Source: an uncultured Lentimicrobiaceae bacterium (GTDB lineage: Bacteria > Bacteroidota > Bacteroidia > Bacteroidales > WCHB1-69). From it: a DNA stretch of 64,000 nt. This document shows, piece by piece, positions 11,540-63,323 of this stretch. Both the position numbers and the translations under genes were made by a program. The notes under the pieces were generated by a model. That model was not told where the DNA came from. It saw nothing but the letters and a program-made list of their open reading frames with translations, and searched no databases. The stretch covers positions 37,957 to 101,956 of the forward strand of contig CAZZHH010000003.1 in NCBI GenBank assembly GCA_964653595.1. Reading direction: 5' to 3'. Within the stretch, counting starts at the first letter, position 1. Each line of letters begins with the position of its first letter.

Positions 11540-11568
11540 AACTACAATCGGCGTTACTTTTTATTCAG
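11540..11568 (-). promoter_or_regulatory. promoter module (CTGAATAAA-N13-TTGTAGTT)
   Basis: Upstream of 10427..11503; no further motif until 6.2 kb, so it may head a long operon. Confidence 0.6.
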
Positions 11569-11574
11569 AATTTT

Positions 11575-11946
11575 TCAGTTTTTATTCACAATGTCTTGCA
11601 TGATAATGTAAACAGCGTATTCCATAGGTGGCTCGGCATCTGCGACACCATCACGAATAATTTCATTTGTAATCTTATTGCGCATTTCTTCCCGAGCATC
11701 GTCATCATCAAAAAACCAACCATCATCACAATAATCTCCATGACAGCAAGCTGTTGCATACAAAGCATTTAAACGCTGAACGTTTTCTTCGTTTTTTTCG
11801 AGACTTTCGCATCTTTCAATTTCAGTTCTGATTTCTTTATTCGAATAATCATTGAATTCAATCATCATTCCGACAATTTCTAAAATTTCTTTGGCGGAAG
11901 AACTCTCAAAAGCCTTTGCTACTTTTTCACGTGTAACTTCTTTCAT
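11575..11946 (-). CDS. hypothetical acidic protein (123 aa)
   Basis: Track ORF 11575..11985 starts at a TTG inside the -10 element; trimmed to ATG 11944-11946 behind AAAGAAAGG SD. Confidence 0.7.
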   Translation of the reverse strand: MKEVTREKVAKAFESSSAKEILEIVGMMIEFNDYSNKEIRTEIERCESLEKNEENVQRLNALYATACCHGDYCDDGWFFDDDDAREEMRNKITNEIIRDGVADAEPPMEYAVYIIMQDIVNKN

Positions 11947-12012
11947 TATGTTAACCTTTCTTTGTTTTGTTATTTGATTATACAATCTGGATTATTTTTT
12001 ATTCATCAATTT

Positions 12013-12567
12013 TCAGTTAAAAATTTCAGTTGATTCTTTTTTATCTTTGCGAATATCGACAATAATATCTTGCATAAGTTCGTCTTTGATATCCTTAACA
12101 AGCTTATCAAATTTTTCATTGTTCTTGAATAACACAAAATCACAATTTTCCACTGCGGCTTTCATAATGCCCATGTATTGTTTTTTGCAGAATATCTGAC
12201 CGATGTATGCATTCCATAAATCAATGGAAAGTTTTTCTGCAATATCCGTTTCGTTCATTTGTTCTTTGCACAACACGGTAAGTTCGTCAATATTTGTTTC
12301 TACAAGAACAGTTTGGTTTTCATTATCAAATGATTCATACTTATGATTTGTGATTTTAACAAGTTCCATCAAAGCTCTTGTATATTCCTTCAAGATGTTA
12401 TGACGGCATTCATCGGTAATCATTGCTTCAAACCGACTGACAAACTCGCCGATCTGACGGTCATCAAAATAAGAAGTTAAATCATATTTCTTGATAAAAA
12501 CTTCTGTCGGATGGAGTGGGTATTCCCGTCTGAACCAAACCACTGGAAAGTGTACTGTTTTATTCAT
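12013..12567 (-). CDS. hypothetical protein (184 aa); N-terminus shared with 26607..26798
   Basis: Trimmed to ATG 12565-12567 (GAGGG SD; ATGA overlap with upstream stop); EYPLHPTEVFIKKYDL block repeated at 26.7 kb. Confidence 0.7.
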   Translation of the reverse strand: MNKTVHFPVVWFRREYPLHPTEVFIKKYDLTSYFDDRQIGEFVSRFEAMITDECRHNILKEYTRALMELVKITNHKYESFDNENQTVLVETNIDELTVLCKEQMNETDIAEKLSIDLWNAYIGQIFCKKQYMGIMKAAVENCDFVLFKNNEKFDKLVKDIKDELMQDIIVDIRKDKKESTEIFN

Positions 12568-12848
12568 TCTTGTATCCCTCGCACGTTTTTTGTTATTAAA
12601 CATAATCCTGTAATTTCATGACCATTACCAAACTCAATGTGTTCGAAATGCCCAATATAACTTTCATTGTAATTTTTATCCATTCCCATTCTGCAACACT
12701 TAAAGTTTGTGTTTTTCCCGAACAATTTATATGCGATAATATTGGTTATGTGTTCATCCGACTTGTCAATTGTTCTCTGCTGTAACTTGACAATATGTTC
12801 TTTGCCACTTTCGCGGTGTAACACTGTGTATACCTGCAACTTAGCCAT
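12564..12848 (-). CDS. hypothetical protein (94 aa)
   Basis: GAAAGGGAAT SD; TAATG overlap with 12848..13357. Confidence 0.7.
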   Translation of the reverse strand: MAKLQVYTVLHRESGKEHIVKLQQRTIDKSDEHITNIIAYKLFGKNTNFKCCRMGMDKNYNESYIGHFEHIEFGNGHEITGLCLITKNVRGIQE

Positions 12849-13357
12849 TATTCATTCCCTTTCATGATAATTTCAAAATCTGTTTCTTTGTATTCAAAAT
12901 TGTTTTTGTTGATTTCACAAAACTCGGTAATCAGTTTACTTGCGGCATCTCTGTTTGCGCCTAAGCGTTCATATTCGTCAAAAGTATCGTCATGGCAGAA
13001 AAACCCATCCGTCAAAAGTATTTCACTAAGTAATACGTTATCCCTTGGCGGGTTATAATATACAGTGCAATTACGACCGAAAAAATATTCAGCTTTGTAG
13101 TTTTTCCCAATTTCATCTTTATGATTGTTTTGTTTACCACACGCCACGACAACATACCCAGTTGATGAAGCAGCGTTGTCGAAAGCTGTTTGTGCAATTT
13201 TTGATAATAGTTCGTCACTTGGGTAATCAGGCTTTTCTGATATGGCATTTTCCACAGCCAGCCCAGCCGCCACAAGCCCTTCAAATATCTTATTGTCGTT
13301 TGTTGATTGGTTGCAATCAACTGCAATAATTGCATGTTCTGTTTTGTAATGCTTCAT
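12848..13357 (-). CDS. Fam-F paralog (unknown function)
   Basis: Shares the ..IAQ.AFD.....GY.v..C.. core with 13449..13904 and 14005..14532; own promoter inside an inverted repeat. Confidence 0.75.
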   Translation of the reverse strand: MKHYKTEHAIIAVDCNQSTNDNKIFEGLVAAGLAVENAISEKPDYPSDELLSKIAQTAFDNAASSTGYVVVACGKQNNHKDEIGKNYKAEYFFGRNCTVYYNPPRDNVLLSEILLTDGFFCHDDTFDEYERLGANRDAASKLITEFCEINKNNFEYKETDFEIIMKGNE

Positions 13358-13383
13358 TTTACCATTCCTTTCTGTTTGTAATT

Positions 13384-13414
13384 AGTAATACAAACGGGAA
13401 TGTGATTTATTCAT
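13384..13414 (-). promoter_or_regulatory. promoter module nested in a 14-bp inverted repeat
   Basis: GATGAATAAATCACATTCCCGTTTGTATTAC; same arrangement at 13937-13967 and 14564-14594. Confidence 0.6.
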
Positions 13415-13445
13415 CATTTATCAATTTTTTCTCACATTCCCGTTT
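13392..13445. repeat. inverted repeat enclosing a promoter
   Basis: AAACGGGAATGTGA ... TCACATTCCCGTTT (perfect 14 bp), 26-nt loop containing TTTATTCAT. Confidence 0.75.
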
Positions 13446-13448
13446 TAG

Positions 13449-13904
13449 TTAAACGTACAAATCGCAAGGGGCAACTTTAAGATACGACCTAAGGAAATCT
13501 CTCAGATTGTAGTTTATCCTGCCGTGTTCCTTATAAACTTTTTCAAGAGTATCTTTATCCATTGCGCCAAAGATTCTACTCCACCAAGCTACATACATCC
13601 TGTCTGTAAGCGAATCGGCATCATGCAGGAATGCCCCTTCACCAAAAACAACATGTTTAAAATGGCACACACTGATTGTGTAACCACCGCTGTAAGCTTC
13701 ACCGACAATGTCATCAAAAGCTTTTTGCGCAATCTCCGAAAGCTCACTATCTTCAATTTCTGGGTCTCCCTTTAACTGATCTTGAATTTCTTTCATGGCG
13801 ACTTCAACACCCTCTTGTTCTTTATCTCGGTCAATGTTATCCATGTATCCCGATGTCGGTTTATCAAAATCCACTGTCATTGTGAATTCTTCGTATGTTT
13901 CCAT
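13449..13904 (-). CDS. Fam-F paralog (unknown function)
   Basis: SEIAQKAFDDIVGEAYSGGYTISVCHFKHVVFGEG; own promoter/IR and SD. Confidence 0.75.
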   Translation of the reverse strand: METYEEFTMTVDFDKPTSGYMDNIDRDKEQEGVEVAMKEIQDQLKGDPEIEDSELSEIAQKAFDDIVGEAYSGGYTISVCHFKHVVFGEGAFLHDADSLTDRMYVAWWSRIFGAMDKDTLEKVYKEHGRINYNLRDFLRSYLKVAPCDLYV

Positions 13905-13944
13905 TATGTTTCTACCTTTCTTTCTTGTTTGTAATTAGTAATAC

Positions 13945-13999
13945 AAACGGAAATGTGATTTATTCATTAATAATGAATTTTTTTATCAAATTCCCGTTT
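13945..13999. repeat. inverted repeat enclosing a promoter (imperfect copy)
   Basis: AAACGGAAATGTGA ... TCAAATTCCCGTTT. Confidence 0.65.
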
Positions 14000-14004
14000 G
14001 GAAT

Positions 14005-14532
14005 TTAATCTTCTTCGATAACCAAATCTTCTGGGGCAAGTTTGAGATACCACTCGAGAAACAATCTTTTATTTGAATCTGAACCCAACTTTGTTTGAAC
14101 AATTCCTCTTGTGTAACTGTCCATTTGATTTAAAATTCGATACCAAAACATTTCGAGTTTAATATCATTAACATCTTGCGCTTCTATTGGGTCAAGTTCA
14201 AAATTTTCGATAGCTTCTTTTATGTTCTCTTGACCATCGTTGAATACGATATACTTATTACGACAAACATCCAACTTATAAATACCGCCACCTACAACTT
14301 CATCAAATGCACTTTGGGCAAGGCATGTAAATTCAAAATCATCATCAAAAGGACACTCGTTCATGTTCCTTTCAGTTACAGTTATTGCCGCTCCAATACC
14401 TTCCAACATTTTATTTAAGTCGACTTTAACCTTAACTTTTTGTTGTGGGTTATTGTCTAAGCTTATAGTTATCTTAAATTTTTCGTAAACGATTTCTGAT
14501 TCAATATGAACTACTTCTGTTATGTTACTCAT
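14005..14532 (-). CDS. Fam-F paralog (unknown function)
   Basis: CLAQSAFDEVVGGGIYKLDVCRNKYIVFNDG; own promoter/IR and SD. Confidence 0.75.
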   Translation of the reverse strand: MSNITEVVHIESEIVYEKFKITISLDNNPQQKVKVKVDLNKMLEGIGAAITVTERNMNECPFDDDFEFTCLAQSAFDEVVGGGIYKLDVCRNKYIVFNDGQENIKEAIENFELDPIEAQDVNDIKLEMFWYRILNQMDSYTRGIVQTKLGSDSNKRLFLEWYLKLAPEDLVIEED

Positions 14533-14571
14533 TGTATTTCTACCTTTCTTTCTGTTTGTAATTAGTAATAC

Positions 14572-14625
14572 AAACGGGAATGTGATTTATTCATCAGTTA
14601 TGAATTTTTTCTCACATTCCCGTTT
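14572..14625. repeat. inverted repeat enclosing a promoter
   Basis: AAACGGGAATGTGA ... TCACATTCCCGTTT (perfect). Confidence 0.75.
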
Positions 14626-14631
14626 GATTTT

Positions 14632-15789
14632 TTATGGACGGAACGTATAAGGACTGTCTTCGATGATGTCACAAAGTTTGTTATTGTACTCATCAACCGA
14701 ACAACTAAAGAACATCTTAAAATCTACACATTCAGTTTCCTCAGCTAATACTTTATTACAATCGTCCATGTGCGGTTTGATGTGTTTATCTAAAAATTCT
14801 TTCATATCTTTACATTCGAATTTTTTCAACATGTCTTCAATTTGCTTATGTGTTTTTGAATCAACTTCGTAATAAAAACACATATCGTTACAGAATGGTT
14901 CATAATAATAAAATCCACATCCGATAAAGTCGATCGGTTTCGTATTCAAATGTGTCATAATAACATAGTTAATCATTTTTATATGAACGGCGGCAAACCA
15001 AAGATAAAAATCTTCGTAAGTATTACTACAATCACCTAAAAGTTCGTTTACCTTTTTCCACTTCTTTTTCATCGCCTTATCTTTTGTATCTTCCTTCAAT
15101 CCGACAAAGCTAAGTTCCCTGTCCATTAAACTGTCGTGGACTTCATACCTTTTATCATCATCAACCAAACTCGGCATTTCAATGGAGTTACCATGATTGG
15201 CTACACCGATTCCCTTGATGATTCTGTCAACCAATCCGTCTTGTTTGCCGTCTGTCTTGAGGAAAGCCTTGATATTCATTTTATAGAATTCACCCCAAAA
15301 GGCTTCATCGCAATCCACATCAAAGTCTGTGTCTTCCAAAATTTTCGTGCCAGCACTTATTAAATTGCCTCCATAAATTTCTGGAAGAATTTCTTTATCG
15401 TCATGGTAACGATCAGCAAGTAATTTGATAGCTCTTTCATATTCTTGCGGCGTTACAAAATAACAGAACGTTGCGCCAGCATCACTTTTTTCGTACTTGA
15501 AAACATTTTTAATATCGCCGTGATATAGGTATGTTTGTTTAACAGCTTCAATCGGCTTTAAATTTTCTTCAAGAACCATTCGATTGAAAATATCAAAATT
15601 GACAATTGCAAGCCAATTGAAGAATTTATCATAATCAAAATTCTCCCAAAGGGATTGTGCGGTTTTATACTTCACTAAACCATCGACAATTTTTTCCCGT
15701 CCTACTTCAATGTCGATTAATTTCTGGATAGCTTCTTCTGGATAATTGAAGAGGCAGGGCAAATGCAAACACTTAACTACACTTTTCAT
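14632..15789 (-). CDS. hypothetical protein (385 aa)
   Basis: Long ORF; AAGAAAGAAAGG SD; own promoter variant. Confidence 0.8.
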   Translation of the reverse strand: MKSVVKCLHLPCLFNYPEEAIQKLIDIEVGREKIVDGLVKYKTAQSLWENFDYDKFFNWLAIVNFDIFNRMVLEENLKPIEAVKQTYLYHGDIKNVFKYEKSDAGATFCYFVTPQEYERAIKLLADRYHDDKEILPEIYGGNLISAGTKILEDTDFDVDCDEAFWGEFYKMNIKAFLKTDGKQDGLVDRIIKGIGVANHGNSIEMPSLVDDDKRYEVHDSLMDRELSFVGLKEDTKDKAMKKKWKKVNELLGDCSNTYEDFYLWFAAVHIKMINYVIMTHLNTKPIDFIGCGFYYYEPFCNDMCFYYEVDSKTHKQIEDMLKKFECKDMKEFLDKHIKPHMDDCNKVLAEETECVDFKMFFSCSVDEYNNKLCDIIEDSPYTFRP

Positions 15790-15875
15790 ATTTTTATACC
15801 TTTCTTTCTTGCTTGTAATTTAATACTACAATTGAGATTATTTTTCATTCAGAAATTGTGATTATTTCCTTCGCA

Positions 15876-16148
15876 TTAAACTCTTTGTCCAAAAATATAA
15901 CGAGGAATTACCTTTAATGCCGCTTCAATATTTACGGGAATCAAGCGTTTATGCTTCAAGAATGCATTTTTACTTATTCCTTTTACAGTATAAGAAACGC
16001 CTTCGTAAACAACCGTTTCAGGAATGTGGGCATATTTCTTTCTTTTCGAAATAGCAGGTTCAATACCGTTGCCAACATATACGGATTTCTTTCCAGTAAT
16101 CATATATGTAATGTTTTTACTCTTGAATGTTTTCTTCATCGGATTCAT
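15876..16148 (-). CDS. short BspA-type LRR fragment protein (90 aa)
   Basis: Trimmed to ATG 16146-16148; ITYMITGKKSVYVG...IPETVVYEGVSYTVKGISKNAF matches N-terminal unit of the LRR paralogs. Confidence 0.6.
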   Translation of the reverse strand: MNPMKKTFKSKNITYMITGKKSVYVGNGIEPAISKRKKYAHIPETVVYEGVSYTVKGISKNAFLKHKRLIPVNIEAALKVIPRYIFGQRV

Positions 16149-16362
16149 CTCTTTTCTTTGTATGATGTAATACAATCAAGAATGTTTTTATTCATCATTT
16201 TTGATTTTCTTGCATATATAAGAATGAGTACTTTTATTAACAAGCCAAAAACCAAAGCTTAATAATATTGTACTAAAATAAGTTTTTTCACTGTAGGAAT
16301 TACAGGTAGTGCTGACTTCGGTCGGAATAGAGTTATCACTTAGTTCAATCACAAATTTCTAA

Positions 16363-16397
16363 CAAAAAAACTGGGTACCTTTTTTAAAGATACCCAG
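16363..16397 (-). terminator. intrinsic terminator after 16411..17139
   Basis: CTGGGTA-loop-TACCCAG followed by T7 on the minus strand. Confidence 0.8.
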
Positions 16398-16410
16398 TTC
16401 ATGTGCGTCA

Positions 16411-17139
16411 TTAATTCTTCGGGTCGTGGAAATCAAACTGGTCGGAAATATCGTTGGCTTTTCTGAACAGCTCTTCCATATACTGATCGCCGTTTTTCCA
16501 TCGCAAGCTTTTATCACCCATCTTCATGGCTTTTAGTGTTTCATGATCCAATTCGACAATACTAAGCCCGTAACCGAGATTATCCATTGCCTTAAGCGCT
16601 TCTTCTACTTCATTGCGTTCAACCTCAATCTCTTCGTTTTCCTCATCGTCCGTTGCAACAGTGTCGTCATTCATGCCACACATTTCATCAATAACATGTT
16701 GGTCATTGTTTGCAATCCATACAATCATATCATGAAGCATTCCAGTATTTGTTATATAAAATGATAAATCATGATTGACATCCGAACTTGTATAAATGAA
16801 AAGATGTTTTCTTTCTTTAACGTTCCATTCCCTGTTGTTGCTATCAATTTCTTTGGGAATATACACATGAATTTTATCATCAAGGCTTTCGTTGACAATA
16901 AACTCAATATTGTTGTCCTTCAAACCCGCCGCATCTGCAAAAATAACAAAGTCCATTACTTCACCATCATCACCGATAAACTTATTGCTTGTTTGTTTGA
17001 GAACGGCGTTTGCAATTGAATCACAAAACGACCGACTTTCTTGTTCGGGTAAGATATCTGCATCAATAAAAATGCGAGTATCTTCATTTTTGAAATCGTA
17101 CCTTGCTACTGTGTTTAAGTTGTTGAATTTTATAATCAT
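16411..17139 (-). CDS. Fam-G paralog (unknown function, acidic C-terminus)
   Basis: 242 aa; own promoter, SD and strong terminator; paralog of 17198..17576. Confidence 0.8.
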   Translation of the reverse strand: MIIKFNNLNTVARYDFKNEDTRIFIDADILPEQESRSFCDSIANAVLKQTSNKFIGDDGEVMDFVIFADAAGLKDNNIEFIVNESLDDKIHVYIPKEIDSNNREWNVKERKHLFIYTSSDVNHDLSFYITNTGMLHDMIVWIANNDQHVIDEMCGMNDDTVATDDEENEEIEVERNEVEEALKAMDNLGYGLSIVELDHETLKAMKMGDKSLRWKNGDQYMEELFRKANDISDQFDFHDPKN

Positions 17140-17197
17140 TGTGTATCTACCTTTCTTTCTGTTTGTAATTAGTGATACAAACGAGAATGCTTTTTAT

Positions 17198-17576
17198 TCA
17201 CAAATTTTTAGTTTTTTCGTTAACATTCCATTTTTGTTCGCAACGCATCTGTTCTTCATCTGGATAATTTATTTTTATAGGAATATATACCGAAATCGTA
17301 TTGTCTCCGTCTTTGTTGACGACAAATTCAATATTATTATCTTTCAAATCCTTATCGGCGAAAAATTCAAAATTCATCACATAGCCATCGTCACGAATGA
17401 ACCTTTTATCTCGTTTCTTGAGAACGGCTTCCGTAATTGAGTCAAACATACTGTGAACATCTTCTAAGCGTAACCAGTTTGGACAATAAACGAATTTTGA
17501 TTCTTTTTTTTGAATCATATTCTGCAACCATGTCTAAGTTTTCAAATTCTATAATTTTTTCGAATTCTACAATCAT
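17198..17576 (-). CDS. Fam-G paralog interrupted by a frameshift in an A8 run
   Basis: ATG 17574-17576 (TAATG coupling) gives MIVEFEKIIEFENLDMVAEYDSKK. Frame then shifts at A8 (17504-17511) into track ORF 17198..17527. Both halves align to 16411..17139. Confidence 0.55.
17504..17511 (-). other. A8 homopolymer at a frame break
   Basis: T8 on + strand; removing one base restores a continuous Fam-G reading frame. Confidence 0.7.
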
Positions 17577-18178
17577 TATTGTTCACCTTTCTCTTTCACA
17601 TGCTCTGTGTATTCTTTCCACGCATAGTAAATCAAATCTTTAACTGACTCTTTTTGTGTACCCTGTAAAGTCCATGAGGTTCCATATTGAAATTCTTCTG
17701 TCGTGTTAGGTTCTTTTTTGAAATACACGCATATTGCCATCTCCATGAAAATTGAATTCGAAGCGGAACAACCTAAAAGAATGCTTTCCAAATCTTTTCC
17801 AATTTCGAAGTCAAACGGAAGAGGATATTCAAAAAATTCACAATCCTCAGTATTCTCTTCGCCTAATGCATTAACAATATTATCGCCTTCGGCTTGCATG
17901 GCAACAAACGTGGCCTGTAACATTGGAGCAAGAAGTTTGTTGTTTCCATATTGTTTATGCATGTCGCTAATCTTAAGCATGTTGGCACAAAGTCTGCCAA
18001 TATCATAGCATTTATTGACCATTGACTGTTCCCAATTTGTTAACATGTTATGGAATTCTTTGAACGAATCGTCATCCAAATCGTATCCGAACATTCCAAT
18101 AAGGAATCCTGTTGTTTGTATTGCAAGGTCATAATTCTCTTTAATGGATTTAATCCCTTTGTCTGTTAAAAATAACAT
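17576..18178 (-). CDS. Fam-B paralog (unknown function)
   Basis: Trimmed to ATG 18176-18178; N-terminus MLFLTDKGIKSIKENYDLAIQTTGFLIGMFG typical of Fam-B. Confidence 0.75.
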   Translation of the reverse strand: MLFLTDKGIKSIKENYDLAIQTTGFLIGMFGYDLDDDSFKEFHNMLTNWEQSMVNKCYDIGRLCANMLKISDMHKQYGNNKLLAPMLQATFVAMQAEGDNIVNALGEENTEDCEFFEYPLPFDFEIGKDLESILLGCSASNSIFMEMAICVYFKKEPNTTEEFQYGTSWTLQGTQKESVKDLIYYAWKEYTEHVKEKGEQ

Positions 18179-18211
18179 TGTGTATCTACCTTTCTTTCTG
18201 TTTGTAATTTG

Positions 18212-18244
18212 ATCATACAATTGAGATTACTTTTTATTCACAAA
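18212..18244 (-). promoter_or_regulatory. promoter module (GTGAATAAA-N12-TTGTATGAT)
   Basis: Typical copy; 35 nt leader to AGAAAGAAAGG SD of the CDS starting at 18178. Confidence 0.65.
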
Positions 18245-18249
18245 TTTTT

Positions 18250-18283
18250 AATAAAATATGGCGATTATTTCTAACCGCCATAT
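18250..18283 (-). terminator. intrinsic terminator after 18287..18922
   Basis: ATATGGCG-loop-CGCCATAT then TTTTATT. Confidence 0.7.
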
Positions 18284-18286
18284 TTC

Positions 18287-18922
18287 CTATCCCCGACTGC
18301 TTTCATATTGTTTCCATAATGCACTAAACAAATTAATCACATTATCTTTTGATTCGTCTGTGAAGATTTCTTTGATTCCACCATAGTTATCGCATAAGCA
18401 ATCAAACTTTTGGACATGATGTACGTTTGGGTGGAGATACCACCGCATACATGCCTGCATACAAACTGCAGTGGGGTCGTAACACATATTCTCGAATGCA
18501 CTCTTGAGATCGTAGTAAATAGTGAAACACCAAGGAATATGCATCCCGTTAAAGAATTCAGAATCAACAGCTATTTCACTATAGGTTGTATCTTCATCTA
18601 ATGTTTTCTTAATCTTGGCATTGATTTTATTCTGTAAGACTTGATACGCCGCTTCAAGGGATAATCTAATTTCTGGTTCATCGTTTTCTCGTCTGTAATG
18701 CCTGAAAACTTTTTCAATTCTAAACGTGTCGGCAGTAAGCCTTCCAATTTCATAACTGATATCGTTCAACCCTTGGTTTGGGTCAAGCATATCATTAAAC
18801 GGTTTCAAACGTTCATCATCTTTATCACACTCAAAAAGTCCAAGTATGAATGATGTAAAGTGTGTTTCCGATTCAAATCTTTCATTGATGGCATTAATGC
18901 CTTTTTCTGTTAAAATGTTCAT
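18287..18922 (-). CDS. Fam-B paralog (unknown function)
   Basis: MNILTEKGINAINERFESETHFTSFILGLFE; own promoter, SD and terminator. Confidence 0.8.
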   Translation of the reverse strand: MNILTEKGINAINERFESETHFTSFILGLFECDKDDERLKPFNDMLDPNQGLNDISYEIGRLTADTFRIEKVFRHYRRENDEPEIRLSLEAAYQVLQNKINAKIKKTLDEDTTYSEIAVDSEFFNGMHIPWCFTIYYDLKSAFENMCYDPTAVCMQACMRWYLHPNVHHVQKFDCLCDNYGGIKEIFTDESKDNVINLFSALWKQYESSRG

Positions 18923-18973
18923 GTTTCTACCTTTCTTTCTTTTGATACTTGATTATACAATCAGACTTACTTT

Positions 18974-19537
18974 TTATTCTTCAATTTTCAATTTTTTGGG
19001 GAAATATTTTTCCATGTACTTCTTTGCCTTACGGTTATACATGATTGTTTGTGCGCACAGGAGTTTCTTGACTAACCCGCCTTTAATATTCGGGCAAATG
19101 ATAATCCTGTCTGACGCACCGTCAATAAAGGATTTGTTTACAAATTCAGGAAGTTCCGAACCTAAGAAAACAATTCGCCTTAAGCTATAACAATGCGCAA
19201 ATGCCGAACCGCCGATACGTTTTACGGATTCTGGAATAATAATGGATTCCAGTTTGTTACATCCATAAAACGCAAAATGTCCAATTCCGACAATATTTCC
19301 AGTCAATTCGACAGATGTTAACGATTGACAACCCATAAACGCACAAGAACCGATATTTGTGACACGGTAGGGTACTTCTTCGTATTCTATTGATATTGGC
19401 GTATCAAATGTTTCCCTGTTAGTTCTGACGGCTTTCTTTTCGCCGTCACCAACCTGAAGATTTGCGTTGTCGATAAATTTGTAAATCGTATTGTCAACCT
19501 TCAGGATTGACTTAATTTCAAGTTCCGTAACTTCCAT
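18974..19537 (-). CDS. BspA-type leucine-rich-repeat protein
   Basis: IGSCAFMGCQSLTSVELTGNIVGIGHFAFYGCNKLESIIIPESVKRIGGSAFAHCYSLRRI; GAGGAAGG SD. Confidence 0.8.
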   Translation of the reverse strand: MEVTELEIKSILKVDNTIYKFIDNANLQVGDGEKKAVRTNRETFDTPISIEYEEVPYRVTNIGSCAFMGCQSLTSVELTGNIVGIGHFAFYGCNKLESIIIPESVKRIGGSAFAHCYSLRRIVFLGSELPEFVNKSFIDGASDRIIICPNIKGGLVKKLLCAQTIMYNRKAKKYMEKYFPKKLKIEE

Positions 19538-19609
19538 TCTCGCACCTTCCTCAACAGGGATTACATTTTCATTCCGCTTTTATTTATTACAAAGTAATCC
19601 GATTAATCG

Positions 19610-20158
19610 TCATTGCCCAAAAATTTCTTTCAGTTCCTGAAATGCCTTATCATCAATGAAAAGGAAATGGCTGGCGGTGTATCCGTCTAAAACATTCATA
19701 AGGTACCTAATAATATTCTTGATAATATTATTACCGTTTTCATCACGTATAACCGTTGCGAGAAAAACAAACGGGTCATCTTTAGTCTTACCGTCATTCC
19801 CGTAATTAAACGAAATAGCTTCCCATTTTTCTGCCTGTTCTTTGGGAACACTGATTTGGAAATCTTCATTACCGAAATACATTCCTACATATTCAAAGTC
19901 AAGATTTTCATCGCTCCCAGTTGCTTCATTAAAAAGTCTTACAAATTTCCGAATCATCATATTTGCAAGAAAGTTATGAAACTTACCACTGGAAAAGTTG
20001 TCTTCAACAAAGTTTGAATATCTTAACCATTGTTGTTCTGTGAAGTTGCTATGCTCTTTACGAAAATTGTTTACTTCGCGAATCCTCGAGGCATACATTT
20101 CTGAATATTCGTACGGCTGATAGAAATTCCTGAATTTGATTTTTACCATGTCGTTCAT
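19610..20158 (-). CDS. Fam-A paralog (unknown function)
   Basis: Fam-A signature: V.I.F.N.F near N-terminus, ..F...(T/S)G..E.L.F.(Y/F)V, then F.(I/V).(M/V)...(Y/F)..W..I(A/S); own promoter and SD. Confidence 0.8.
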   Translation of the reverse strand: MNDMVKIKFRNFYQPYEYSEMYASRIREVNNFRKEHSNFTEQQWLRYSNFVEDNFSSGKFHNFLANMMIRKFVRLFNEATGSDENLDFEYVGMYFGNEDFQISVPKEQAEKWEAISFNYGNDGKTKDDPFVFLATVIRDENGNNIIKNIIRYLMNVLDGYTASHFLFIDDKAFQELKEIFGQ

Positions 20159-20224
20159 TGTATTTGTAACCTTTCTTTGTTATGCTTGGTACTACAACTG
20201 GAATGGATTTTTATTCACAAATTC

Positions 20225-20779
20225 TCAATTTTCGTATTCGTGAATTGCTTGAAGTTCTGAACGCCATGTTACAGCATCAACCCTCATGAAGTCACATGCC
20301 GTATGTTTACCCATTAATTGAGAAATACGATTGACAATGTTTTTCCCGATATATCCGTCATAAGCTTTTTTGAGCATGAATGTAAACACGTCGTTTTCTT
20401 CGTTCTCACCATTGTTCCCGAGGTCGTAGGCAATACTTTTCCACTTATTAAATTCAGCATCGGTCATTTTGACAACAAAGTATTGTTTGCCGTTTTCGTT
20501 TTCCATTTCAATGTATTTGAGGTTCAGCTCTTCGTCATACCCAGAGACACATTTGTAAAGTTCAACAAACGCTTTTGCCGTATCCTGCACAAGATATCTG
20601 TGGAACATGTTATATGAAAAATGACCCCCAACCATGCAATAATACATTTGCGCTTTACCTTCGGTCGGATTATAAACCTTGCAAAACCTGTCAACTGCAC
20701 GTTTTGTAGAATCGTCAATTTCTTTTGATTCGTGTTCCTGAAAAAGATTTTCAAACCGAATTTCCACTGTATCGTACAT
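20225..20779 (-). CDS. Fam-A paralog (unknown function)
   Basis: Trimmed to second ATG (20777-20779), properly spaced from AAAGAAAGG; MYDTVEIRFENLF. Confidence 0.8.
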   Translation of the reverse strand: MYDTVEIRFENLFQEHESKEIDDSTKRAVDRFCKVYNPTEGKAQMYYCMVGGHFSYNMFHRYLVQDTAKAFVELYKCVSGYDEELNLKYIEMENENGKQYFVVKMTDAEFNKWKSIAYDLGNNGENEENDVFTFMLKKAYDGYIGKNIVNRISQLMGKHTACDFMRVDAVTWRSELQAIHEYEN

Positions 20780-53339: not shown

Positions 53340-53343
53340 CATT

Positions 53344-54344: not shown

Positions 54345-54370
54345 CACGTAAAATTAAGTGAATAAAAAAA

Positions 54371-54394: not shown

Positions 54395-54401
54395 CCGTTG
54401 T

Positions 54402-55073
54402 TTAGTTACTTTTTACTTTCACCTCGTTTCTTGTAACTATTTGCATTTCGTCTTTGTATGTTCTACTAACTCTTGTGATGTGGTCAAAAATGCCGCCCTC
54501 GTAAAAGCCGCCGAATATACTATCGAGCTTAAACTTAGTTTTGATGTTACATAATATGATAGTGTCAAAACCTGTGTTATAAAACGCACGCACGCCTATG
54601 GATTTAACACAGTAAAGCGTTTTACATTTTTCTCCACCAAACCTGTGGTGTCCGAAATGGTCTAAGCTACAACAATCATAAAAGGCAAAATCACTTATTG
54701 TTTCAACTAAAGGGCAATCAATTGATGTAACACAACCACAACCCGCGAATGCGCCTGTGCCAATTACTCTTACTCTATCATACCCAACAACTTTACACAG
54801 ACTTGCACAACCCGCAAATGCGTAATTACCAATGGTTTCAATATTGCTTAAACGAACCGTGCGCACGTCGGAACCTGCAAATGCGCCATCTGCAATGTGT
54901 TTCACAGCGTATTTTTTGCCCTCATACTCGAATTCACAGGGAATTTCAATCTCGGCGGTGTTGTAATAATCGGACTTAATAACAGGCATTGAAAGAACTG
55001 TTGCTTCCATGCGATATGGATTCAGTTGAAACGATCCAGCAAATTCTGTTTTGACTGTGATATAGATAGACAT
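54402..55073 (-). CDS. BspA-type leucine-rich-repeat protein
   Basis: Trimmed to ATG 55071-55073 (AGGGG SD); HIADGAFAGSDVRTVRLSNIETIGNYAFAGCASL. Confidence 0.75.
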   Translation of the reverse strand: MSIYITVKTEFAGSFQLNPYRMEATVLSMPVIKSDYYNTAEIEIPCEFEYEGKKYAVKHIADGAFAGSDVRTVRLSNIETIGNYAFAGCASLCKVVGYDRVRVIGTGAFAGCGCVTSIDCPLVETISDFAFYDCCSLDHFGHHRFGGEKCKTLYCVKSIGVRAFYNTGFDTIILCNIKTKFKLDSIFGGFYEGGIFDHITRVSRTYKDEMQIVTRNEVKVKSN

Positions 55074-55198
55074 GGTATTACCCCTATAAGAATTTTTTAA
55101 CTTCACTACATAACTACAATCGAACAGGTACTTTATTCATAAAAGATGAATTTTTTTGCTTTATATGCGAATTGTTAATTCAAGAAAACCAGTTGTAT

Positions 55199-55215
55199 TT
55201 TTACGTGGGGTACAG
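55199..55215 (+). repeat. 17-mer copy
   Basis: TTTTACGTGGGGTACAG. Confidence 0.7.
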
Positions 55216-55237
55216 GGCAAAAAAATCGCCAAAAAAA

Positions 55238-55261
55238 ACTGGAGTCATTTCTGACTCCAGT
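55238..55261 (-). terminator. terminator after 55269..55574
   Basis: ACTGGAGTCA-GAAA-TGACTCCAGT then T8. Confidence 0.8.
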
Positions 55262-55268
55262 CTGTTTC

Positions 55269-55574
55269 TTAGTAGTTTGATTTGATTTTCCATTTGTTGC
55301 CTTCAGGAATTGTTACGTTTGAAGGCATGGCGATAGTATAAAACGTTCCATCGTCGCTTCTTGTGACTTCAGCATTATGATCGGTCAATCTATCATAAGC
55401 GACAAAAATAAAACAATTGTCGTTCATATCGTCCATCTCACTATCGTCAAAATTGTCCGATTGAAAAATGGAATTGCACAATGATTTTATTTCTTCACTT
55501 GCACAGCGCCAACCTTGCGAATCGCAACATGTTGCAATTCTTTTTCCGTCTTTAAAGTGAAACACTTCATTCAT
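55269..55574 (-). CDS. hypothetical protein (101 aa)
   Basis: GAGGT SD; own promoter and terminator. Confidence 0.7.
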   Translation of the reverse strand: MNEVFHFKDGKRIATCCDSQGWRCASEEIKSLCNSIFQSDNFDDSEMDDMNDNCFIFVAYDRLTDHNAEVTRSDDGTFYTIAMPSNVTIPEGNKWKIKSNY

Positions 55575-55687
55575 AATACAAACCTCATAGAGTTTATTTT
55601 GTTTCTTGTTTCGTAATCATAATACAATTAAGACGAAAGCTTATTCATAAATTTTTTAATATTTTTTATTCCAGAAAACCCGTTGCA

Positions 55688-55704
55688 TTTTACGTGGGGT
55701 ACAG
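55688..55704 (+). repeat. 17-mer copy
   Basis: TTTTACGTGGGGTACAG; starts a 46-nt block identical to 56358-56403. Confidence 0.7.
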
Positions 55705-55733
55705 GATATTCTATTTTGCGCAATATGCGAAAA

Positions 55734-55751
55734 GGGGAATTTGCATTCCCC
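55734..55751 (-). terminator. terminator after 55762..56259
   Basis: GGGGAAT-GCAA-ATTCCCC then TTTTCGCAT. Confidence 0.7.
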
Positions 55752-55761
55752 CGTTTGTTTA

Positions 55762-56259
55762 TTATCTCATAGAGTCCACAAGTTTCATTACGGCGGTATC
55801 GTACGACAATAAAGTTCTGTGTTCTTGAGGATCGAATAGGATTTTACAACCGTTAACAAATGTTTCAAGTTGCGAACAATCTTCTTCATTCCATCCGAAA
55901 TAATTGTCATTTTCCAAATCGTTCTTCTGTTCTTGCGTCATATGCGAAAATACTTCATCCGTCACTTCAATTAAGCGAACATGCATTCCAGCAAACGAAA
56001 CGGCTTCAGCAATTTCACTCGGTTCAAACTCATATTCGTCATTTACGGAAGAATGATAGGGTAAATGTTCAATCCCGCTACCACTTGCATAGTGGGGATT
56101 TTCTACCGTTAAATTATCAGACACTTCAGAATATTCTTCAGCTACCCAATTTAAAACGGAGTCAATAGTAATTTTTTCATAGCTTCCATCTTGCCACATC
56201 TTATTATAGGCAAGCAACATTCCGCCCGTGGAATCTTTCAAGTGAATCATTAAAGCCAT
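55762..56259 (-). CDS. Fam-M paralog (acidic, unknown function)
   Basis: Trimmed to ATG 56257-56259; MALMIHLKDSTGGMLLAYNK. Confidence 0.75.
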   Translation of the reverse strand: MALMIHLKDSTGGMLLAYNKMWQDGSYEKITIDSVLNWVAEEYSEVSDNLTVENPHYASGSGIEHLPYHSSVNDEYEFEPSEIAEAVSFAGMHVRLIEVTDEVFSHMTQEQKNDLENDNYFGWNEEDCSQLETFVNGCKILFDPQEHRTLLSYDTAVMKLVDSMR

Positions 56260-56357
56260 TTTTCTAATCCCTTTCATCTTTTGAAGTTACTTATATCTAC
56301 AATCAAGTGGAAACTTTATTCACAAATTGTTATTTTTATTCTATGAGTTTTATGGTA

Positions 56358-56374
56358 TTTTACGTGGGGTACAG
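56358..56374 (+). repeat. 17-mer copy
   Basis: TTTTACGTGGGGTACAG. Confidence 0.7.
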
Positions 56375-56402
56375 GATATTCTATTTTGCGCAATATGCGA
56401 AA

Positions 56403-56426
56403 AGGGGATTCATTTCTGAATCCCCT
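56403..56426 (-). terminator. terminator after 56431..57135
   Basis: AGGGGATTCA-GAAA-TGAATCCCCT then TTTCGCAT. Confidence 0.75.
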
Positions 56427-56430
56427 ATTT

Positions 56431-57135
56431 TTAAATCCAAGCTGGTTGTGTTTTTGTATCTGGCAAACTGAATAACCAATCAATAACATCTTGAGGAACC
56501 TGTGCAAACTTTTTCTCTACCCCGAATATATGCCCACAAACTGGACAAGGTTTTCTGCATAATCCATCTGGGTGGTCATCTTCACGAAGATACAAAAGTT
56601 TGCTTTTTTTCATAAATGGAATATCCTTTTTATAGAATTCACTAATAGATTCATCAAGTTCTTCCTTATCGCTTTCACGGATTAACCGCAATAACGGTAT
56701 AATATGCGCTTTTTCTGTAAGTTGGAAATAAGTATGATTCTTATCTATTTTATTAATTTTCTTTATAGCGTCAAAAATTTCAGACGCTTCTCTTGTAATA
56801 ACAAATTGATACACATCTACTTCTTTCCAACACTGCTCAGGCCAACCCAACTCTTTTTGGTGTTCGCAATATGTACGCCTGTGATTTAAATTCCATTCAT
56901 TCCAAATTTGAATTAATCTTTCAACTTTCTCTTGATTAAATCCATCATTAAAACATTTAACGTTATTAAGTAATGCATTTTGAATTTGGTCACGATGACC
57001 TGTACAGCGCCCAAAAATTCTCGGCCCCTCAACTCCAGTAATTGTTAATGCGCCTTGTTCGTCCAATTCAATTTTAACATAAACTTGCATTTCTGTATTA
57101 CTGCACTTTTCCAATGGATTGATAATTTTAATCAT
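56431..57135 (-). CDS. hypothetical protein (234 aa) with C-terminal CxxC
   Basis: Trimmed to ATG 57133-57135; CRKPCPVCGH near the C-terminus; no family recognised. Confidence 0.75.
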   Translation of the reverse strand: MIKIINPLEKCSNTEMQVYVKIELDEQGALTITGVEGPRIFGRCTGHRDQIQNALLNNVKCFNDGFNQEKVERLIQIWNEWNLNHRRTYCEHQKELGWPEQCWKEVDVYQFVITREASEIFDAIKKINKIDKNHTYFQLTEKAHIIPLLRLIRESDKEELDESISEFYKKDIPFMKKSKLLYLREDDHPDGLCRKPCPVCGHIFGVEKKFAQVPQDVIDWLFSLPDTKTQPAWI

Positions 57136-57221
57136 TACTGTACTCTCTTTCATTTTTAAGGTTACTTATTATTACAACCGAACAGAAATTTTATTCACAA
57201 ATTACTATTATATGCGAATAA

Positions 57222-57247
57222 GGGGGAATTCATTTCTGAATCCCCCC
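57222..57247 (-). terminator. terminator after 57256..57477
   Basis: GGGGGATTCA-GAAA-TGAATTCCCCC (one bulge). Confidence 0.7.
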
Positions 57248-57255
57248 ATTATGAA

Positions 57256-57477
57256 TTACTTGTGATTGATTTCATCAAGAATACGTGTCACTACATCCAA
57301 AGCATCACGCAATTGGCTTTTAGTCATTGATTTAGATAAATCCACAACACCGCCGCCATTAAGGTGCAGTTCAAGTTTATTTCCGTTTATGGTTTTCGTT
57401 ACTTCAAATTTGCCATGCGGCAATTCAGGCAAACGCCTCAAGCAAATTTCAATTTCTTTGTTTGTTGCTCTGTTCAT
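57256..57477 (-). CDS. Fam-L paralog (73 aa, unknown function)
   Basis: Aligns with 49491..49709; own promoter and terminator. Confidence 0.7.
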   Translation of the reverse strand: MNRATNKEIEICLRRLPELPHGKFEVTKTINGNKLELHLNGGGVVDLSKSMTKSQLRDALDVVTRILDEINHK

Positions 57478-57562
57478 GATAGGATTCCTTTCATCCTTTG
57501 AAGTTACTTATATCTACAATCGAGTAGAAACTTTATTCACAAATTGTTATTTTTTTATGGTA

Positions 57563-57579
57563 TTTTACGTGGGGTACAA
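57563..57579 (+). repeat. 17-mer copy
   Basis: TTTTACGTGGGGTACAA. Confidence 0.65.
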
Positions 57580-57655
57580 AATGCATTACAAAAAAAGGGG
57601 GATTCATTTCTGTTCATAATCCCTACCACTGTATAATGTCGGGAGTTTCCCGTGT

Positions 57656-57690
57656 TGTAATACAACTAAAGGGGGTATTTTTATCCACAA
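57656..57690 (-). promoter_or_regulatory. orphan promoter module (variant GTGGATAAA)
   Basis: Followed by a CGGG-loop-CCCG leader hairpin, an ATG with only 20 codons, and a degenerate terminator. Confidence 0.45.
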
Positions 57691-57722
57691 ATTGTTATTT
57701 TTATTTGGGAATTGTTCCGCCC

Positions 57723-57757
57723 CTCCCCATGTAAAATATTTCAACCCCACGCAAAAT
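57723..57757 (-). repeat. double half-site version, opposite orientation
   Basis: + strand CTCCCCATGTAAAATATTTCAACCCCACGCAAAAT; inverted relative to 58809-58842. Confidence 0.55.
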
Positions 57758-57780
57758 GAGGGATTTTTCAGAACAAAAAA

Positions 57781-57810
57781 ACAGGCGGGGAATTTTCATT
57801 CCCCGCCTGT
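57781..57810 (-). terminator. terminator after 57815..58615
   Basis: 13-bp stem ACAGGCGGGGAAT/ATTCCCCGCCTGT, GAAA loop, T7 tail. Confidence 0.8.
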
Positions 57811-57814
57811 GGTA

Positions 57815-58615
57815 TTAGCAACATTCCTCCAACATGTATAAAACATCTTTAGCGCCGAGAAGCCGTTTTTTCTTTTTATACACCTTAACTGTGATTGTCC
57901 CCTCGTTGTTGTCTTGAATTTTTACCCTCGTCACCAACTCACCACTGAATGCCTGACTGTGAATTTCTGGTTTTTCGCCATTATACTTAAATGTCAAATC
58001 GTCAAATCTTGTGTTACAAAATGCCGATTTCCCAATATGCTTCACGTTGAAAAACACGTGTTCCCAATCAAACAAAACAGAAGTATTCTCATAGACCTTG
58101 TTCAAACGTTCGCAATTATAAAAAGCATAATCCCCAATATCGACAACGCCATGAATGCAACATTGAGAAATATTACTTGACTCAAACGCAAATTTTCCAA
58201 TTCGTGTAACATGCGAGAAACAACTGTAAAAGCTAATCAGTTCTCTCGTGTATGCAAAAGCATGATCGCCAACATATTTCAAATTCGATCCGAATAACAC
58301 TCTTTTGAACATTGTGCCTGAAAATGCATAATCAGCTATAGCAGTAACTTTGATTTTTTCGCCGTCATACAGAACATCATTAGCTAATGATAATTCACCC
58401 TCAAAATTCCGAGCTTCAGGCATAACTCGATTGACTATCATCCCAAGGCACTTGGTTTCTTGATGGTCAAAATAATACTTTGCATATTCAATGCCATTAC
58501 AAATAACCGTTTTTTGGTCTACCTGATAGCACAAACCAAATAAAGAGTTTGAAATTCCGCAATTTCCAATATTACTATAAACAAACTCATTTGTATTCTT
58601 TGTTTCCGTAGTCAT
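57815..58615 (-). CDS. BspA-type leucine-rich-repeat protein
   Basis: AGGAG SD; AIADYAFSGTMFKRVLFGSNLKYVGDHAFAYTRELISF; unusually long structured leader. Confidence 0.8.
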   Translation of the reverse strand: MTTETKNTNEFVYSNIGNCGISNSLFGLCYQVDQKTVICNGIEYAKYYFDHQETKCLGMIVNRVMPEARNFEGELSLANDVLYDGEKIKVTAIADYAFSGTMFKRVLFGSNLKYVGDHAFAYTRELISFYSCFSHVTRIGKFAFESSNISQCCIHGVVDIGDYAFYNCERLNKVYENTSVLFDWEHVFFNVKHIGKSAFCNTRFDDLTFKYNGEKPEIHSQAFSGELVTRVKIQDNNEGTITVKVYKKKKRLLGAKDVLYMLEECC

Positions 58616-58808
58616 GATATGACTCTCCTATATATTATATGGTTTTTACACACAAGGAACGCCGCCCGTGGCGTTCCGATTCATTGAGATGTCAAAGAGC
58701 GGTGTTCCTTGTTGCGTAATATATCTACAGTTGAGTAGGCACTTTATTCATGAAAGATGAATTTTTTGTTATATGCAGTCTTTTTTTTATTCTATGAGTT
58801 TTGTGGAA

Positions 58809-58842
58809 TTTTGCGTGGGGGAGAGATATTTTACATGGGGAG
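58809..58842 (+). repeat. double half-site version
   Basis: TTTTGCGTGGGGGAGAGATATTTTACATGGGGAG. Confidence 0.55.
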
Positions 58843-58874
58843 GAAAATGTGGGATTCTTCAGAACAAAAAAAAT

Positions 58875-58900
58875 AGGGGGATTCATTTCTGAATCCCCCT
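58875..58900 (-). terminator. terminator after 58908..59774
   Basis: AGGGGGATTCA-GAAA-TGAATCCCCCT then T8. Confidence 0.8.
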
Positions 58901-58907
58901 ATGTTCA

Positions 58908-59774
58908 TTATGCTGGAATGGCTTCCTGTTCGGTTTTTCCCTCCAGTGCGTTCACAAGATACGTGACATTCTTTTCAACACGTTTAATTAGCCTACTAAC
59001 GGCAATAAGTGCCTGTTTAGGGGATTTATCGTTCCAACTGGTTAAATAGCTTAAAACGCCGTTTAAATCGCAATGGGATTCATAACCCAAGTAGGACATT
59101 AAAACCGCCGCCCCGAATTCTGCAACCGTCTCACACATTTGACGGCATTCCATATTATTATGATAATCCTCATTCTGTTTTTTGTAGTTGACGTAATCGG
59201 CGGCATGAATCAGTTCATGAGCGAAAACGGATTCATCTTTTGACTTCAAAGTGATTTTATTGCTCAATGCGTAATACCCGCCCAATGCACTTCCTGAATC
59301 TTCGGCAATCACTTTAATGTCAAGTTGTTTTGCAATTTCATACAAGGGGGCTTTATTCCCGCCCTCATAAAATGTTTCAATCATTTTTTCGGATTCAAGG
59401 GGTTCTCCGTCTGTTTGGGAAACGTCGAAACGGGGCGACAATGTAAAGCCTATGCATTTATTTTTATCGTCTTCGTTTTCATCTTTTTCTTTGATAATAA
59501 GGGGCTTGAAAATGAAGACGGCTTTTTCGCCGCCCTTGACAAACCGTTTAACTTTTTTCCATTCATTGTAAGTTCTTGCGTCCGTGGCGCCTTGTGCCAT
59601 TAAAAGCAGTTGATTAAAAACGCTTAACTTCGTTTGAGACAATCTTTTGACATTGAAAACTTCATGACGGACGTTAGAAACGAGGGTACCGTTTTCGCAC
59701 ATTGTTTTCATCATGTTAAAAAGTTTTGCGGCGCAATCTTGCATTCTGAATTCTTTTTCTTCCATTGTAGCCAT
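58908..59774 (-). CDS. ArdC-like anti-restriction protein (second copy)
   Basis: Trimmed to ATG 59772-59774 (AGGAG SD); NQLLLMAQGATDARTYNEWKKVKRFVKGGEKAVFIFKPL, VFAHELIHAADY, ETVAEFGAAVLMSYLG. Confidence 0.8.
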   Translation of the reverse strand: MATMEEKEFRMQDCAAKLFNMMKTMCENGTLVSNVRHEVFNVKRLSQTKLSVFNQLLLMAQGATDARTYNEWKKVKRFVKGGEKAVFIFKPLIIKEKDENEDDKNKCIGFTLSPRFDVSQTDGEPLESEKMIETFYEGGNKAPLYEIAKQLDIKVIAEDSGSALGGYYALSNKITLKSKDESVFAHELIHAADYVNYKKQNEDYHNNMECRQMCETVAEFGAAVLMSYLGYESHCDLNGVLSYLTSWNDKSPKQALIAVSRLIKRVEKNVTYLVNALEGKTEQEAIPA

Positions 59775-59911
59775 AGTCAAGCTCCTAAATGTATATTATC
59801 GGGTTTTTCCCGTGTTCGCAATTATATTACAACTGAAGGAGTATTTTTATTCACAAAAAATGAATCTTTTTTTTGTTATAGGTAATTTTTTTATAAATGA
59901 GTTTTGTGGAA

Positions 59912-59945
59912 TTTTACGTGGGGGAGAGATATTTTACATGGGGAG
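59912..59945 (+). repeat. double half-site version
   Basis: TTTTACGTGGGGGAGAGATATTTTACATGGGGAG. Confidence 0.55.
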
Positions 59946-59951
59946 GAATAA

Positions 59952-59971
59952 GGGGATTCATTCGAATCCCC
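59952..59971 (-). terminator. terminator after 59980..60249
   Basis: GGGGATTC-GAAT-GAATCCCC. Confidence 0.7.
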
Positions 59972-59979
59972 CAAATGAA

Positions 59980-60249
59980 TTAAATCTCCTTTGCAAGAAA
60001 TATGAATATGTCGTCGGGTCTTGAATCCGAGTCGGCATGATCGATTTTCAACGAATCATAAAGCGGGAAAACGCCATATGTGCGGCAACATTCTCGGCGC
60101 AATGTAAAACATTCAGGTTTCCATTCACCACATGTAAAAACATCACGTGACGGAATATGTAACGCCATAACACTCTGTGGCGAATGTTCAATTATTTTGT
60201 GAGCTTGTACAGCTGTCACTAAACTGCAACCGTGTCTATTGAATTCCAT
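59980..60249 (-). CDS. Fam-I paralog (unknown function)
   Basis: AGGAG SD; TCGEWKPECFTL block shared with 62827..63117. Confidence 0.65.
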   Translation of the reverse strand: MEFNRHGCSLVTAVQAHKIIEHSPQSVMALHIPSRDVFTCGEWKPECFTLRRECCRTYGVFPLYDSLKIDHADSDSRPDDIFIFLAKEI

Positions 60250-60380
60250 GATTCCTACTCCTGTATAATATCGGGTTTTCCCGTGTTCGCTATTATATTA
60301 CAATTGGGGAGAATCTTTATTCATAAAAAATGAATCTTTTTTTATAAATGAATCTTTTTTAACAAATGAGTTTTGTGGAA

Positions 60381-60443
60381 TTTTACGTGGGGTACAGGGC
60401 AAAAAATTTGGTCTGTATAAAAAACCCTGTACCCCACGTAAAA
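60381..60443. repeat. perfect 19-bp inverted pair of the 17-mer
   Basis: TTTTACGTGGGGTACAGGG - 25 nt - CCCTGTACCCCACGTAAAA. Confidence 0.8.
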
Positions 60444-60447
60444 TAGG

Positions 60448-60488
60448 GAAATTTTCCCGCCCAGTTTTTCACTGGGCGGGAAAATTTC
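60448..60488 (-). terminator. terminator after 60494..60922
   Basis: Perfect 17-bp stem GAAATTTTCCCGCCCAG/CTGGGCGGGAAAATTTC, 7-nt loop. Confidence 0.75.
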
Positions 60489-60493
60489 ATTTG

Positions 60494-60922
60494 TTAATAG
60501 GTCTTTCTGCTCATGTAGCGATCGAAATCGTCCGTATAATGGATATTGATGCATCCAGATTCTTTAGCGGTTTTAATGAACAGCGTATCTAACTCGTTTA
60601 GTGTGCTAACGGGAATGGCATAATCAAATTGCTCTTGAGTCACTCTTCTGTTAAACCATTCGGCATTACTATTTTTCCCGTTGACGTAGTTGACGTATTC
60701 GGCTTTAGTCATAAACTCAATGGCATAAGGTTCACAATCAGTACCCCCGCATTGCTCTATCGACTGCAAAGGGTCGGAAGCGGTAATCATAATGACACCA
60801 GCAAAATATCCACTTCGCCCGACACGGCGTATATAAAGATCATCACAGAATTCTTCTTTGTTTAACTCAACTGTTTTGAGCTGAAAAGAGGCGGAAGAAC
60901 TAAGTACGGAAACGGTAATCAT
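60494..60922 (-). CDS. hypothetical protein (142 aa)
   Basis: GGAG SD; leader shares a block with that of 54402..55073; 17-bp-stem terminator. Confidence 0.7.
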   Translation of the reverse strand: MITVSVLSSSASFQLKTVELNKEEFCDDLYIRRVGRSGYFAGVIMITASDPLQSIEQCGGTDCEPYAIEFMTKAEYVNYVNGKNSNAEWFNRRVTQEQFDYAIPVSTLNELDTLFIKTAKESGCINIHYTDDFDRYMSRKTY

Positions 60923-61050
60923 AATATACTACTCCAATAAGGATTTTTTAACTTCACTACATAACTACAACCAAGTAGGAACTTTATTCACAAAAGATGA
61001 ATTTTTTTCTTAACTATGTTGATTTTTTGTTCCAGAAAATACCTGGACGA

Positions 61051-61067
61051 TTTTGCATGGGGTACAC
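61051..61067 (+). repeat. 17-mer copy (variant)
   Basis: TTTTGCATGGGGTACAC. Confidence 0.55.
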
Positions 61068-61075
61068 AAAGATTT

Positions 61076-61099
61076 CAGGCGGGAAGAAATTCCCGCCTG
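61076..61099 (-). terminator. terminator after 61111..61698
   Basis: CAGGCGGGAA-loop-TTCCCGCCTG. Confidence 0.75.
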
Positions 61100-61110
61100 T
61101 GAATGAATTC

Positions 61111-61698
61111 TTATTCCTTTACTCCAATTTTGTTCAATCCGAATTTTACGGCTTCCTCGAGTGTTTCAAAATCGTAATAAGATTCTGTATAAGCGTTTTC
61201 AATATCGTAAACATTCACTTGAAAGAATCTGTTTTGAATGTTCTTTTCAATCAACCTTAAAGAACTCTCAAGGAACTCCTTATCAATCTTTTCGAACATG
61301 CTACTTTTAACATCGTCTGGAGTTGAAAAAATAAATCCGATTACTTTTGAGATTGCCTGTTCTGTGCTAAAAAGAATATTGTCATTTGCATAAATCGGCA
61401 AATAGATACAGTTATTTTTAATTAAATGTTTTTCAAATTCCTCAACATTTTTAAAATCCATCATATTAAAGCCAGCAAGAGGATGATGATTAATACGGAA
61501 ATTATTATTCGGAAAATGCACAATGTGTACGCGTCTCAACGCCAACAATTCACCAATAGACTTTTTATACCCTGTGACTGTGAATATTTTGTTGTCTGTT
61601 GTTTCACGATGTAAAACACTGTTTGAGAAAAATTCCGTTAACATTTTATACTTTTCTTCCCAGTGTGATAAAGAATGATACGGCGTTACTCTTTCCAT
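61111..61698 (-). CDS. hypothetical protein, distant Fam-C-like
   Basis: NCIYLPIY...VIGFIFSTPDD...FFQVNVY resembles CIFLPVY...GFIYITRED...LYATVAY of Fam-C (weak). Confidence 0.75.
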   Translation of the reverse strand: MERVTPYHSLSHWEEKYKMLTEFFSNSVLHRETTDNKIFTVTGYKKSIGELLALRRVHIVHFPNNNFRINHHPLAGFNMMDFKNVEEFEKHLIKNNCIYLPIYANDNILFSTEQAISKVIGFIFSTPDDVKSSMFEKIDKEFLESSLRLIEKNIQNRFFQVNVYDIENAYTESYYDFETLEEAVKFGLNKIGVKE

Positions 61699-61778
61699 GA
61701 TTCTAATACCTTTTCTTGTTTTGGCTTTACCTGTACTTACAATTAAGATTGATTTTTATTCGCAAATATTTAATAAAA

Positions 61779-61810
61779 TTCAGGACGGGAGTTTTTGTTC
61801 CCGTCCTGAA
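61779..61810 (-). terminator. terminator after 61819..62124
   Basis: 12-bp stem TTCAGGACGGGA/TCCCGTCCTGAA then ATTTTATT. Confidence 0.75.
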
Positions 61811-61818
61811 TTCGTTTA

Positions 61819-62124
61819 TCACGCTACGCCGAACGTAAAATATTCATCCGCCGAAGTTCCAATTGGCATATTAGAATCTCCAGCGTTCTGCAATATTTTT
61901 CCATCCTTGGAGATTCGCACAATGGACACACCGAATTCCATTGACATATGGCACATTACAAACTCTTCAGGTTGCCAAACGAAATTCGCCCAGCCGCGAC
62001 GATATCCATTCGTTAAAGCGTTCTTATCGACCACTTCAAAACACTTTCTACCCTTATTCTCAAGCTCTGCATGAAATTCCTGTGCCGTCATAACTTTAGT
62101 AACTTCTCTTGTTGTGCCGTTCAT
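61819..62124 (-). CDS. Fam-I paralog (unknown function)
   Basis: VWQPEEFVMC..GVSIVRISKDGKIL...ADEYFTF aligns with 62827..63117. Confidence 0.7.
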   Translation of the reverse strand: MNGTTREVTKVMTAQEFHAELENKGRKCFEVVDKNALTNGYRRGWANFVWQPEEFVMCHMSMEFGVSIVRISKDGKILQNAGDSNMPIGTSADEYFTFGVA

Positions 62125-62223
62125 GTTGTGCCGTCCTTAGTTTTAATGTGAAGTTATCAGCTTCGCTATATACCTACAGTTAGGATAATTTTTTATTCAC
62201 CAATAATGAATTTTTTTATTCTG

Positions 62224-62238
62224 CAACCCCATGTAAAA
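62224..62238 (-). repeat. 17-mer half-site, opposite orientation
   Basis: + strand CAACCCCATGTAAAA. Confidence 0.4.
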
Positions 62239-62243
62239 AACAT

Positions 62244-62266
62244 AGGCGGGAAATTTCTTCCCGCCT
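62244..62266 (-). terminator. terminator after 62272..62652
   Basis: AGGCGGGAA-loop-TTCCCGCCT. Confidence 0.7.
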
Positions 62267-62271
62267 TGATT

Positions 62272-62652
62272 TTATTCTGTGACTGCCTTTGCCCAAGTTT
62301 TTATTAAATCCTCTTTAATTTCAGAAGTTTCTGCCGCATTCGCCGCACTGCATTGTTCGCCTGTTTTCCAATGATAAGAGTTTCGTGTCATTCTGTTGCA
62401 TATAAGTAATTGCGCTTTACAATCCATACGCAACATAGCGCGAATGTAATCATAAACATCAGGCTCAAAATCACCAAGCCGACTCAATGGTTTTGCCAAG
62501 AAAAACATTTTAACGTTTTCCGTGAGTGTTTTTTGATCCATGACAATTTCTTCAACTGCTATGTCAACATTTTCTGCATGGTCACCGTCATTTTCAAGCC
62601 GCTGAAGATAATGGTCATTGCCCACTACAATGTAAACGAATTCGTTATTCAT
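62272..62652 (-). CDS. hypothetical protein (126 aa)
   Basis: TAAGGAC SD; own promoter and terminator. Confidence 0.7.
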   Translation of the reverse strand: MNNEFVYIVVGNDHYLQRLENDGDHAENVDIAVEEIVMDQKTLTENVKMFFLAKPLSRLGDFEPDVYDYIRAMLRMDCKAQLLICNRMTRNSYHWKTGEQCSAANAAETSEIKEDLIKTWAKAVTE

Positions 62653-62775
62653 GTTAAAAACCGTCCTTATAAAAGTATGGCGAAGTATGTTCCCTGTCGC
62701 TCGCCGTATACATACAAACAGGAATATTTTTTATTCATCATTTTTTTCGCCAGATAATTATTTTTTTGATATGTT

Positions 62776-62790
62776 CCAACCCCATGTTAT
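62776..62790 (-). repeat. 17-mer half-site, opposite orientation
   Basis: + strand CCAACCCCATGTTAT. Confidence 0.35.
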
Positions 62791-62793
62791 ATA

Positions 62794-62822
62794 ATCGGAC
62801 GGTGAATTCTCCGCCGTCCGAT
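62794..62822 (-). terminator. terminator after 62827..63117
   Basis: ATCGGACGG(T)G-loop-C(G)CCGTCCGAT. Confidence 0.7.
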
Positions 62823-62826
62823 CTGC

Positions 62827-63117
62827 TTATCCTATCATTCTTAGGAATGTAAAGTATTTTTCTGCATTATCTCCCGCCTTGGCGGTTGTATCGCCGTTTA
62901 CATGCATGATCGTTCCATCTTTTGCAACTCTTACACTGAAGCCATTCTCTTCCATTCCGCGCACTACAAAACACTCGGGCTTCCATTCGCCACAAACACA
63001 AACATCGCCAGTCTTTAATTCTACAGCTTTAATATTTACATAATTACTGTAATCACTGCTGATTTCAAGCAGACTATGCGCCTGTGTTGGCGTTGCCCTT
63101 TCAATCTTTGTAAACAT
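62827..63117 (-). CDS. Fam-I paralog (unknown function)
   Basis: VCGEWKPECFVV..GFSVRVAKDGTIM...AEKYFTF; last (most upstream) minus-strand cassette left of the non-coding region (another minus-strand gene ends at 63901). Confidence 0.7.
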   Translation of the reverse strand: MFTKIERATPTQAHSLLEISSDYSNYVNIKAVELKTGDVCVCGEWKPECFVVRGMEENGFSVRVAKDGTIMHVNGDTTAKAGDNAEKYFTFLRMIG

Positions 63118-63157
63118 AATACCGTGACCTTTCTTTATGTGAATTTCTTAACTTCGC

Positions 63158-63192
63158 TATATACCTACAATTAAGTATTCGTTTTATTCAAA
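63158..63192 (-). promoter_or_regulatory. promoter module for 62827..63117
   Basis: TTGAATAAAACGAATACTTAATTGTAGGTAT. Confidence 0.55.
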
Positions 63193-63223
63193 ACTCATGA
63201 AGAAAAAACATTTCTGAATATGG

Positions 63224-63254
63224 CAATACAAACAGTAATTCTTTTTATTCAGAA
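63224..63254 (-). promoter_or_regulatory. second, upstream minus-strand promoter module
   Basis: CTGAATAAA-N12-TTGTATTGCC, 65 nt upstream of the previous one; no ORF of its own. Confidence 0.45.
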
Positions 63255-63292
63255 AACCCTGAAAATAAACATTTAAAAAACCCAAAAAACCT

Positions 63293-63323
63293 CATGAATA
63301 AAAATCCAAAAAGATTGTATACA
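63293..63323 (+). promoter_or_regulatory. plus-strand promoter module facing the non-coding repeat region
   Basis: ATGAATAAA-N12-TTGTATACAG in + orientation; no convincing ORF downstream. Confidence 0.5.

Follow-up and report, generated by a model that had tools for sequence, protein, structure and literature searches.

T4-like phage genomes carry 51-52 PeSLs each (PMC2839356), AR9 possesses 41 early promoters (PMC5312081), and the host-takeover region of SPO1 comprises 26 genes in 12.4 kb (PMC6873191). The stretch of 64,000 nucleotides analysed here (the window) harbors an array that is hosted by an uncultivated jumbo phage of ~0.3 Mb. The array forms a 52-kb block of small orphan genes with ~77 near-identical promoter-plus-ribosome-site cassettes, in which almost every gene is preceded by such a cassette.

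Copy number and anatomy of the repeated module

The motif TGAATAAA-N12(±1)-TTGTAnnAY occurs 77 times in the window (at most one mismatch over both boxes, spacer of 11-14 nt) against ~0.6 expected, with 74 copies on the minus strand and 3 on the plus strand. Under the near-identical definition with a spacer of 11-13 nt, 76 copies were observed, whereas windows simulated with a first-order Markov model averaged 0.58 copies and never held more than 2. A search for TGAATAAA-N12-TTGTANNAY with ≤2 mismatches returned 68 matches, including 64 on the minus strand; dinucleotide shuffling gave an expectation of 1.84, and no shuffle exceeded 6. A recognisable copy is present in each of the 78 spans listed in the initial annotation (74 good and 4 degenerate), but its count of only two copies left of 11.5 kb was too low, as four are present (Table 1).

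Table 1. Coordinates of degenerate copies and of copies left of 11.5 kb in the window
Feature	Position	Strand	Remark
Degenerate copy among the 78 spans	28909		
Degenerate copy among the 78 spans	37993	+	
Degenerate copy among the 78 spans	43901		
Degenerate copy among the 78 spans	57657		
Copy left of 11.5 kb	338-366		
Copy left of 11.5 kb	4128-4156		
Copy left of 11.5 kb	5910-5938		Perfect match
Copy left of 11.5 kb	6155-6183		

The conserved unit is longer (~45 nt) than first described and extends further upstream. It consists, in order, of an A-tract (positions -16 to -12), T-n-A-n-AATTTG, TGAATAAA, a semi-conserved spacer, and TTGTAnTA. The module is bipartite, with a spacer tolerance of ±1 and a TAnnAY block. 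The final Y of this block is poorly conserved (T 28, A 17, C 11, G 8; n=64). At 6-8 nt 3' of the block, A or C is a recurring base. The motif had also been said to often contain the preceding gene's stop codon; this codon lies inside the box in just 9 of 73 cases, and at -10 to -8, ending 7 nt before the box, in 6 more.

Placement relative to genes and transcription units

As originally proposed, the module is co-directional with the genes, standing upstream of ~61 of the 80 genes that the minus strand carries from 11.5 to 63.3 kb. Downstream of 65 of 73 minus-strand copies there is a start codon with a Shine-Dalgarno sequence (AAAGG for 46 copies, with its end 8-11 nt 5' of the ATG). The start codon follows the end of TTGTA at a median distance of 36 nt (IQR 34-43). 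Overlap with coding sequence is rare: only ~3 copies fall within the 3' end of a genuine upstream gene, and no copy is located inside a gene in antisense orientation. An unbiased 7-mer comparison of intergenic with coding sequence, a type of check suggested at the outset, placed TGAATAA, ATTGTA, and AGAAAGG, the last being the Shine-Dalgarno sequence, among the most enriched intergenic words. CCCACGT and TTCGCAT were also among the most enriched words in this comparison.

The initial annotation described the array as autonomous single-gene transcription units, which is only partly right and is not supported in that form. A terminator-like hairpin with a T-run occurs ≤130 nt upstream of only ~21 of 73 copies, and for 24 copies the stop codon of the gene before lies inside the box or within 20 nt of it, leaving no room for a terminator. 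In addition, ~19 of the 80 genes lack their own copy and are grouped as 2-3-gene operons. Given the few terminators, the tight spacing between stop codon and box, and the operon genes, read-through and cumulative transcription across the array are likely.

Promoter specificity and relation to known phage systems

In our reading, the unit represents a class of bipartite, sigma-dependent promoters of the jumbo phage, driving the orphan-gene region, including anti-restriction-like genes. In a related 323-kb scaffold, one copy ends 13 nt 5' of a tRNA-Arg gene, which fits the proposed -35/-10 geometry. A canonical sigma-70 scan showed no enrichment (75 sites vs 87.6 expected), and TTGACA and TATAAT are absent from the most enriched intergenic words of the 7-mer comparison. 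At the register of an 18-bp spacer, only 1 of 64 copies has a -35 hexamer that begins with T. Because the -35-like box differs from TTGACA and the canonical signal is not enriched, a dedicated specificity factor, phage-encoded or phage-modified, is our preferred but unproven reader of the module. No promoter class described so far has a matching recognition sequence.

Cassettes sharing 80-93% identity stand 5' of unrelated genes, and the junctions of one strain difference fall within or adjoining promoter modules; both features liken the array to the PeSL cassettes of T4-like phages. A search for relatives elsewhere found none. The array had been considered to go beyond what is known, which holds for its density, higher than in the documented T4-like, AR9, and SPO1 cases, but not for its type of architecture. 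Overall, the array is of the same kind as the repeated early-promoter cassettes known from T4-like phages, but packed with unusual density.

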